Origin: Escherichia coli | Lineage (GTDB): Bacteria > Pseudomonadota > Gammaproteobacteria > Enterobacterales > Enterobacteriaceae | NCBI RefSeq assembly: GCF_003334765.1 | Contig: NZ_QOWT01000006.1 | Length of the DNA: 64,000 nucleotides | Direction: 5' to 3' (one strand) | In this document: one piece after another, positions 11,719 through 12,239 of the stretch | Layout of the letters: the number at the start of each line of letters is the position of its first letter | Position numbering within the stretch: the stretch's first letter is position 1 | Program-made: the position numbers and the translations under genes | The notes under the pieces: generated by a model | Told to the model about the DNA's origin: nothing | The model's input: the letters and a program-made list of their open reading frames with translations, nothing else | Databases searched by the model: none

Positions 11719-11892
11719 TTAAAACAGTGAAAACAACAGCGCCACCGGGAAACTCATCGGCCATGTTGCCCCCACCAGAAAGGCGCTTAAGAAACGGATG
11801 CGTTTCTTATCGTGAGAAAGAAACCAGGTGATAAGAAATGCGATTGCTGCCATAACCGCATAAAAAACAAGCATGTGTTGATAGAGAGACAT
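11719..11892 (-). CDS. ortT: orphan membrane toxin (GhoT-like), 57 aa
   Basis: Internal ATG of the track ORF gives MSLYQHMLVFYAVMAAIAFLITWF..., a small two-helix hydrophobic peptide with no adjacent antitoxin ORF. Confidence 0.6.
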   Translation of the reverse strand: MSLYQHMLVFYAVMAAIAFLITWFLSHDKKRIRFLSAFLVGATWPMSFPVALLFSLF

Positions 11893-12086
11893 GTACGGGC
11901 GTCCAACCAGATGAATAAAACGCGCGCAAATATGCGTCATTTTTTGACGTGCATCAAGTTTTTTCACCAGTTTGAGAAAAAATCATCAAACAGCAACTTG
12001 CCCTTATCCATCTTCAGAATGAGTATTATTGCGGATTTTCTTAACCCGTACTATACACATAGGGGCAATGATAAAAGGTGGCAAAA

Positions 12087-12182
12087 ATGAATGTTTCCAG
12101 TAGAACTGTAGTACTGATAAATTTCTTTGCTGCTGTTGGTTTGTTTACTCTTATCTCTATGAGATTTGGCTGGTTTATTTGA
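12087..12182 (+). CDS. yncL: 31-aa single-TM small protein
   Basis: ATG at 12087 preceded by AAAAGGTGG; encodes MNVSSRTVVLINFFAAVGLFTLISMRFGWFI; too short for the ORF track. Confidence 0.5.
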   Translation: MNVSSRTVVLINFFAAVGLFTLISMRFGWFI

Positions 12183-12204
12183 TGTAGTGATTTTGCACGC
12201 AGCA

Positions 12205-12239
12205 CGTACTGTCAGAGAAATCAGTGCTCTGACAGTACG
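12205..12239. other. perfect 13-bp inverted repeat (cgtactgtcagag / ctctgacagtacg, 9-nt loop) between yncL and patD
   Basis: Seen directly. It has no flanking U-tract, so it is a stem-loop of unclear role (RNA stability element or protein-binding palindrome) rather than a clear intrinsic terminator. Confidence 0.5.

Follow-up and report, generated by a model that had tools for sequence, protein, structure and literature searches.

A U-less palindrome between yncL and patD of Escherichia coli as a probable protective 3′-terminal stem-loop of the yncL mRNA

What does a perfect 13-bp palindrome do in the spacer between the convergent genes yncL and patD of Escherichia coli? The question arises in a 64,000-nucleotide stretch of DNA (the window, by which we mean the whole of it), where a sequence-only reading had noticed the palindrome beside the small genes ortT and yncL and had proposed that it might be an RNA-processing or protein-binding site controlling either of them. 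RefSeq names the ORFs concerned ortT, yncL, patD and ydcY, and a 1.2-kb stretch annotated ydcY, ortT, yncL and patD is present in 5,416 of 5,426 complete E. coli genomes with 95–100% identity (megablast). yncL lies between patD and ortT and is read from the opposite strand to both, and 194 bp lie between the start codons of ortT and yncL. Both small genes are already characterised and published, so the gene-level part of the observation is known. The palindrome we regard, with a probability of roughly 75%, as the 3′-terminal stem-loop of the yncL mRNA, with Rho stopping transcription downstream, exonucleases trimming the transcript back to the stem and the message thereby protected; mRNA 3′-end elements of this kind are known, and the present one adds a well-supported example. 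Features of the locus are collected in Table 1.

Table 1. Features at and around the palindrome in window coordinates (MG1655 coordinate = 1529281 minus window coordinate).
Feature	Position	Strand	Basis
ortT (ydcX, b1445), 57-aa GhoT-family membrane toxin	11719–11892	−	ORF, RefSeq, Pfam PF10753, PMC4344625
Predicted sigma-S-type −10 element C-TATACA of yncL	12051–12057	+	inferred from sequence
Shine-Dalgarno AGGTGG of yncL, ATG 5 nt further on	12076–12081	+	sequence
yncL (b4598), 31-aa single-TM stress micro-protein	12087–12182	+	ORF, RefSeq, NF000537, published function
yncL 3′ UTR, 60 nt, up to the mapped RNA 3′ end	12183–12242	+	Term-seq
Terminal stem, 5′ arm	12205–12217	+	repeat finder, fold, covariation
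Loop, 9 nt here; 3–10 nt and variable in sequence in orthologues	12218–12226	+	orthologue comparison
Terminal stem, 3′ arm	12227–12239	+	repeat finder, fold, covariation
C-rich, G-poor tract past the stem, candidate Rho-loading (rut) region	12240–12296	+	base counts, alignment; rut role inferred
Centre of published Rho termination region, antisense within patD	12528	+ (yncL strand)	PMC7815308; low resolution
patD, convergent neighbour; stop codon 40 nt from the stem	12279–13703	−	ORF, RefSeq

The palindrome itself (12205–12239) had been described exactly to the base. Its arms, CGTACTGTCAGAG and CTCTGACAGTACG, were returned by the repeat finder as 13/13 complementary across the 9-nt loop, with seven of the 13 pairs being G–C, and the RNA folds at −21.6 kcal/mol on the (+) strand and −22.5 kcal/mol on the (−) strand (z-scores of −5.5 and −5.8 respectively against shuffles). 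Neither strand has a U-tract past the stem: the 12 nt that follow read CAAGAUCAUCUC on (+) and UGCUGCGUGCAA on (−), and each strand has only 2–3 U among its first 9 nt. Of the two hallmarks of an intrinsic terminator, the locus thus has the stable G+C-containing stem-loop and lacks the U-tract with the RNA end inside it (CAAGAUCAU on (+), UGCUGCGUG on (−)), and a terminator scan did not call the palindrome. Because no other perfect hairpin-type repeat in the 64-kb window reaches 13 bp, and none of that size appeared in 40 first-order Markov simulations, we take it to be beyond chance. Five further perfect hairpin-type repeats in the window are of 11 bp (20388–20428, 42261–42295, 47041–47070, 61304–61336 and 62949–62982), and the one at 42261–42295 (AAAAAACCCGG...CCGGGTTTTTT) resembles a canonical bidirectional terminator.

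Several known element types were compared with the palindrome. An Rfam scan of both strands of 10500–13500 gave no match at E ≤ 1. A dispersed repeat was rejected, since in 5,412 of 5,426 E. coli genomes the palindrome has a median of one site per genome and never more than two: REP/BIME elements, which are likewise extragenic palindromes able to protect upstream mRNA from 3′ exonucleases, are multi-copy, whereas the yncL palindrome is single-copy and has no REP consensus. The half-sites TACTGT and ACAGTA within the arms suggested a LexA box, and this was rejected too because CTGT and ACAG are separated by 19 bp rather than 8 and the half-site is altered in Salmonella and in Citrobacter (where it reads CTGG).

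Published data also show where RNA ends near the palindrome. Mapping of 3′ ends around 12200–12240, which had been put forward as a check, is already in print: the Term-seq data of Adams et al. (2021; PMC7815308, supplementary file 1) contain a 3′ end at MG1655 1517039(−), with flanking sequence TTTGCACGCAGCACGTACTGTCAGAGAAATCAGTGCTCTGACAGTACGCAAGATCATCTCA; in window coordinates this end falls at 12242 of the yncL strand, the stem having closed 3 nt earlier. This steady-state end is present in all three conditions, with 75,265 reads in LB at OD 0.4. A second tab, which we take to be LB at OD 2.0, gives 536,300 reads (PMC7815308), so that the end is about sevenfold stronger in this presumed stationary-phase tab. 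The same list holds no other 3′ end within 15170xx–15171xx and none on the patD strand near the palindrome. The authors' pipeline labelled the 1517039(−) end ‘antisense, patD’ (PMC7815308), presumably for want of yncL among the genes they had annotated; this strong Term-seq peak, listed as antisense to patD, in fact marks where the yncL mRNA ends.

Downstream on the same strand, a Rho termination region has been reported at 1516753(−) (286 nt past the RNA end), where the Rho score is 16.6 (p = 5e-21; supplementary file 2 of PMC7815308); as the score uses 800-nt windows, its position is poorly resolved and the measure is regional rather than specific to the yncL transcript. Reads upstream and downstream of this point numbered 220 and 9 in untreated cells and 106 and 72 with bicyclomycin (PMC7815308), so that, on this regional measure, bicyclomycin raises downstream read-through. 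The sequence past the stem is C-rich, with 15 C vs 6 G in 12237–12296 and a C/G ratio of 1.1–1.9 over the next 500 nt, a mild signal that is also typical of antisense coding DNA. In the alignment of orthologues, a GATCTTCYCAC motif past the stem is conserved in Escherichia and Citrobacter.

The reading that best accommodates these data would run as follows. RNA polymerase transcribing yncL would read past the U-less hairpin; Rho would load on the untranslated C-rich RNA just beyond the stem and halt transcription at scattered points over the next few hundred nucleotides, in the region antisense to patD; and the 3′–5′ exonucleases PNPase and RNase II would then chew the tail back until blocked by the 13-bp stem, leaving a precise end 3 nt past it and a stable, abundant yncL message. 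We infer here that Rho acts on the yncL transcript itself rather than on neighbouring antisense RNA, that the end at 12242 is probably created by exonucleases, and that the stem would raise the stability of the yncL mRNA. There is ample precedent for such an element. Rho-dependent transcripts can have precise steady-state 3′ ends directly after stable stem-loops without U-rich tails (Dar & Sorek 2018, NAR 46:6797, PMC6061677), with C-over-G usage downstream and with diffuse tails trimmed to the stems by PNPase and RNase II (PMC6061677). Like these stem-loops, the yncL hairpin has the RNA end right past the stem, no U-rich tail, no upstream A-tract and more C than G downstream, and going by the regional score its read-through would be bicyclomycin-sensitive too; it differs from them in that its arms make a perfect palindrome which a convergent gene shares, and its fit to the class is by sequence and end position.

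We compared 80 ortT loci from distinct species, 25 of which have a divergent yncL; these belong to Escherichia, Citrobacter, Salmonella, Intestinirhabdus and a Pluralibacter-like metagenome-assembled genome (MAG). In Escherichia, Citrobacter and Salmonella, 22–34 nt separate the yncL stop codon from the start of a hairpin, and an alignment of 23 distinct orthologue rows from these three genera yielded a 10-pair consensus helix with double compensatory changes at four pairs, such as U–A to G–C at TGTCAG/TGGCAG. When the five outer Escherichia pairs were added to the 10 consensus pairs, both sides had changed in 8 of the 15 pairs, 83.5% of cells were paired as against 35–53% with slid partner columns, and the covariation score exceeded that of every one of 500 shuffles. 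E. coli shows no variation in the arms and two alleles of the loop, and strains of the cryptic clades carry a compensatory change from CGTAC/GTACG to CGCAC/GTGCG. This pattern, drawn from aligned sequences, suggests that selection has acted on pairing, and it speaks against a protein operator of fixed spacing. Such clean compensatory evolution over three genera is direct comparative evidence for selection on U-less 3′ hairpins.

Since the stem folds about equally well on both strands, neither wobble pairs nor folding energies assign it to one of them. We nonetheless assign the hairpin to yncL because the sole mapped end is on the yncL strand, the hairpin stays when patD is displaced and it is missing where yncL is missing. 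Thus, it remains beside yncL in the roughly one-fifth of complete E. coli genomes where a 1.3-kb islet displaces patD, and also in the C. freundii group, where a gene for an AraC-like regulator takes the place of patD. Conversely, no such hairpin was found in genera with ortT and patD and no yncL (for example, Enterobacter and Leclercia), where unrelated GC-rich or REP-like hairpins follow patD. The position of the RNA end, the Rho region, the covariation and the linkage to yncL together lead us to place the yncL hairpin among the protective U-less stem-loops of Rho-dependent transcripts. Of the earlier proposal of an RNA-level processing site controlling a small gene, the part that stands is that the element acts at the RNA level; it appears to be a common 3′-end stem-loop of yncL rather than a special processing or regulatory site. 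Its importance would then reach little beyond annotation, as one more stem-loop defining the ends of Rho-terminated mRNAs.

The islet that displaces patD is AT-rich, separates the hairpin from the patD stop codon (window 12260–12285; 4860–6215 in locus L002) and encodes a hexapeptide-repeat acetyltransferase related to Vat/CatB that scores under every curated NCBIfam cut-off. Its left junction, about 20 bp past the stem, repeats the patD 3′ end in degenerate form (CCTTAATATTTAC). The CatB-like gene beside the hairpin in these strains prompted a comparison with integron attC sites and cassettes, which was set aside on inspection: no sign of a cassette was seen, and the hairpin is unchanged up to a junction that lies well past the stem.

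What stands at this position after yncL varies among genera. Escherichia and Citrobacter have the U-less hairpin and Intestinirhabdus has no clear hairpin; two Salmonella loci have a GC-rich hairpin whose core stem is followed, 9 nt on, by a U-run, and in the Pluralibacter-like MAG the place is taken by a canonical bidirectional terminator, AAAAAAGCAGCC...GGCTGCTTTTTT. The Salmonella U-run and the terminator of the MAG are the reason why U-less hairpin and terminator architectures seem to interconvert here, and these sequences hint that two ways of forming an end can replace each other at this locus.

They also bear on the alternative that fares best after the protective stem-loop, namely that the palindrome is a non-canonical, U-less, bidirectional intrinsic terminator for both yncL and patD, perhaps aided by NusA or NusG, which we consider unlikely overall. 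It would account for a perfect palindrome between convergent genes that is equally stable on both strands and for the precise, strong 3′ end adjoining the hairpin, and it finds some support in the Salmonella U-run and the canonical terminator of the MAG; canonical intrinsic terminators likewise have hairpins of similar size and energy, stand at the end of a transcription unit and occur between convergent genes. Unlike them, the yncL hairpin has no U-tract on either strand (the few U residues of the first 9 nt and the negative scan were given above), and its RNA end is 3 nt from the stem. Intrinsic termination usually ends farther than this from the stem. Read-through into the region antisense to patD is bicyclomycin-sensitive on the regional measure, and no 3′ end is reported nearby on the patD strand. 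Some direct termination may occur at the E. coli stem.

Less probable is that the palindrome serves as the two-way hinge of a three-gene switch, which on one side would end and stabilise the yncL mRNA and on the other would limit read-through from the patD operon, this read-through being antisense to yncL and sense to ortT. Were it true, polyamine catabolism would be coupled to the choice between two membrane-depolarising peptides. The palindrome may have a role for patD transcripts too.

A somewhat poorer case can be made for an RNase III or excludon site, at which double-stranded RNA from overlapping patD and yncL transcripts would be cut, with expression of the two genes being mutually exclusive. 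The 13-bp stem falls short here, for typical RNase III substrates are longer. Speaking for this idea, patD–yncL is among the convergent overlapping pairs listed by ExcludonFinder, and the abundance of yncL mRNA shifts in RNase E and/or RNase III mutants according to a tiling-array study, whose text does not state the direction. Against it, Citrobacter lineages and E. coli strains in which patD is no longer the convergent neighbour still have the hairpin, and the end at 12242 is strong under conditions where no patD 3′ end was detected.

Least credible is a DNA operator, with a dimeric transcription factor on both arms regulating yncL, patD or ortT, since, despite the perfect 13-bp dyad, the LexA-like half-sites and a well-conserved inner arm (CAGAG/CTCTG), the dyad is downstream of both convergent genes and away from promoters, the loop that spaces the arms measures anything from 3 to 10 nt depending on the species, the arms undergo compensatory pair changes rather than keeping a fixed sequence, and the CTGT/ACAG spacing and the Citrobacter CTGG do not agree with a LexA box. 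The protein-binding site of the sequence-only reading is therefore disfavoured by the covarying arms and the variable loop. Control of ortT fares no better, for ortT is about 300–310 bp off on the other strand and most genera with ortT have neither yncL nor the hairpin: nothing connects the palindrome, which sits on the far side of yncL, to ortT.

The gene to which we assign the protective stem-loop has 31 codons plus a stop and encodes MNVSSRTVVLINFFAAVGLFTLISMRFGWFI, with the hydrophobic core VVLINFFAAVGLFTLISM. That yncL is a real, translated, single-TM micro-protein gene, as had been proposed from the ORF, is borne out by a match of its product to the NCBIfam equivalog NF000537 (68.6 bits, cut-off 35) and by published work (PMC12542507), and its AGGTGG Shine-Dalgarno is present 5 nt ahead of the ATG. 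YncL belongs to the sigma-S-induced stress micro-proteins. It is induced by heat, in stationary phase and in minimal medium, and its production leads to membrane depolarisation and nucleoid condensation (PMC12542507); it is also an in vivo substrate of RseP (PMC10470546). Upstream, C-TATACA fits a sigma-S −10 element of yncL, from which transcription is predicted to start at about 12062–12064 and to give a monocistronic mRNA of about 180 nt (~12062–12242). Consistent with this predicted promoter, a strong SELEX peak for the RpoS holoenzyme lies in the yncL/ydcX spacer (PMC5493296), and the Salmonella yncL orthologue yields a discrete, sigma-S-dependent RNA of 195 nt that was earlier catalogued as the sRNA STnc1110. 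The roughly sevenfold higher read count of the E. coli 3′ end in the presumed stationary-phase tab also agrees with such a promoter. This Salmonella ‘coding sRNA’ is the orthologous yncL transcript, similarly short and discrete and with its end near the same hairpin; its original listing was among non-coding sRNAs. The E. coli locus matches no Rfam family. In the fold predicted for the yncL mRNA, the terminal hairpin forms an independent domain. In published RNA–RNA interactomes, yncL is connected with two sRNAs, RprA (by RIL-seq and TRIC-seq) and KilS.

As for ortT, its 57 codons plus stop start at an inner ATG of an 82-codon GTG ORF. Its description as a GhoT-like toxin holds, with a full-length match of the product to Pfam PF10753 (Toxin_GhoT_OrtT; E = 9.2e-28, residues 4–57 on model positions 1–55 of 55) and toxicity, via membrane damage, already published (Islam et al. 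2015, PMC4344625). The absence of an antitoxin likewise agrees with experiment, as YdcY, GhoS, flanking intergenic RNA and a genomic library were tried and none neutralised OrtT (PMC4344625). OrtT is thus in the same Pfam family as GhoT of the type V GhoT/GhoS system and both damage the membrane; that system has an antitoxin, whereas none is known for OrtT, and the palindrome considered here is outside the ortT transcription unit. YncL is unlikely to be the missing OrtT antitoxin, given that most ortT-bearing genera have no yncL; it is absent from 55 of the 80 ortT loci from distinct species and is therefore no obligate partner of ortT.

Three smaller sequence features accompany ortT. The palindrome TTGACGTGCATCAA at 11944–11957, which reads TTGAT-N4-GTCAA along the ortT strand, shares bases with the likely −35 of that gene and is kept upstream of ortT across genera; the site is a published FNR ChIP-chip target for ydcX (PMC1802558), and ydcX is induced about 12-fold by nitric oxide in strain CFT073. 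At window position 11924 (−), 32 nt upstream of the ortT ATG, Term-seq places a weak 3′ end of 848 reads (Adams et al., PMC7815308) with a Rho score of 0.5 and an intrinsic-terminator score of 3.2; it coincides with the transcription start expected from a TTGATG-N17-CATATT promoter and could be a weak attenuator or noise. Finally, the ortT coding sequence contains two short inverted repeats, at 11788–11809 and 11800–11841, one perfect over 9 bp with a 4-nt loop (TAAGAAACG/CGTTTCTTA) and the second of 12 bp with 92% complementarity.
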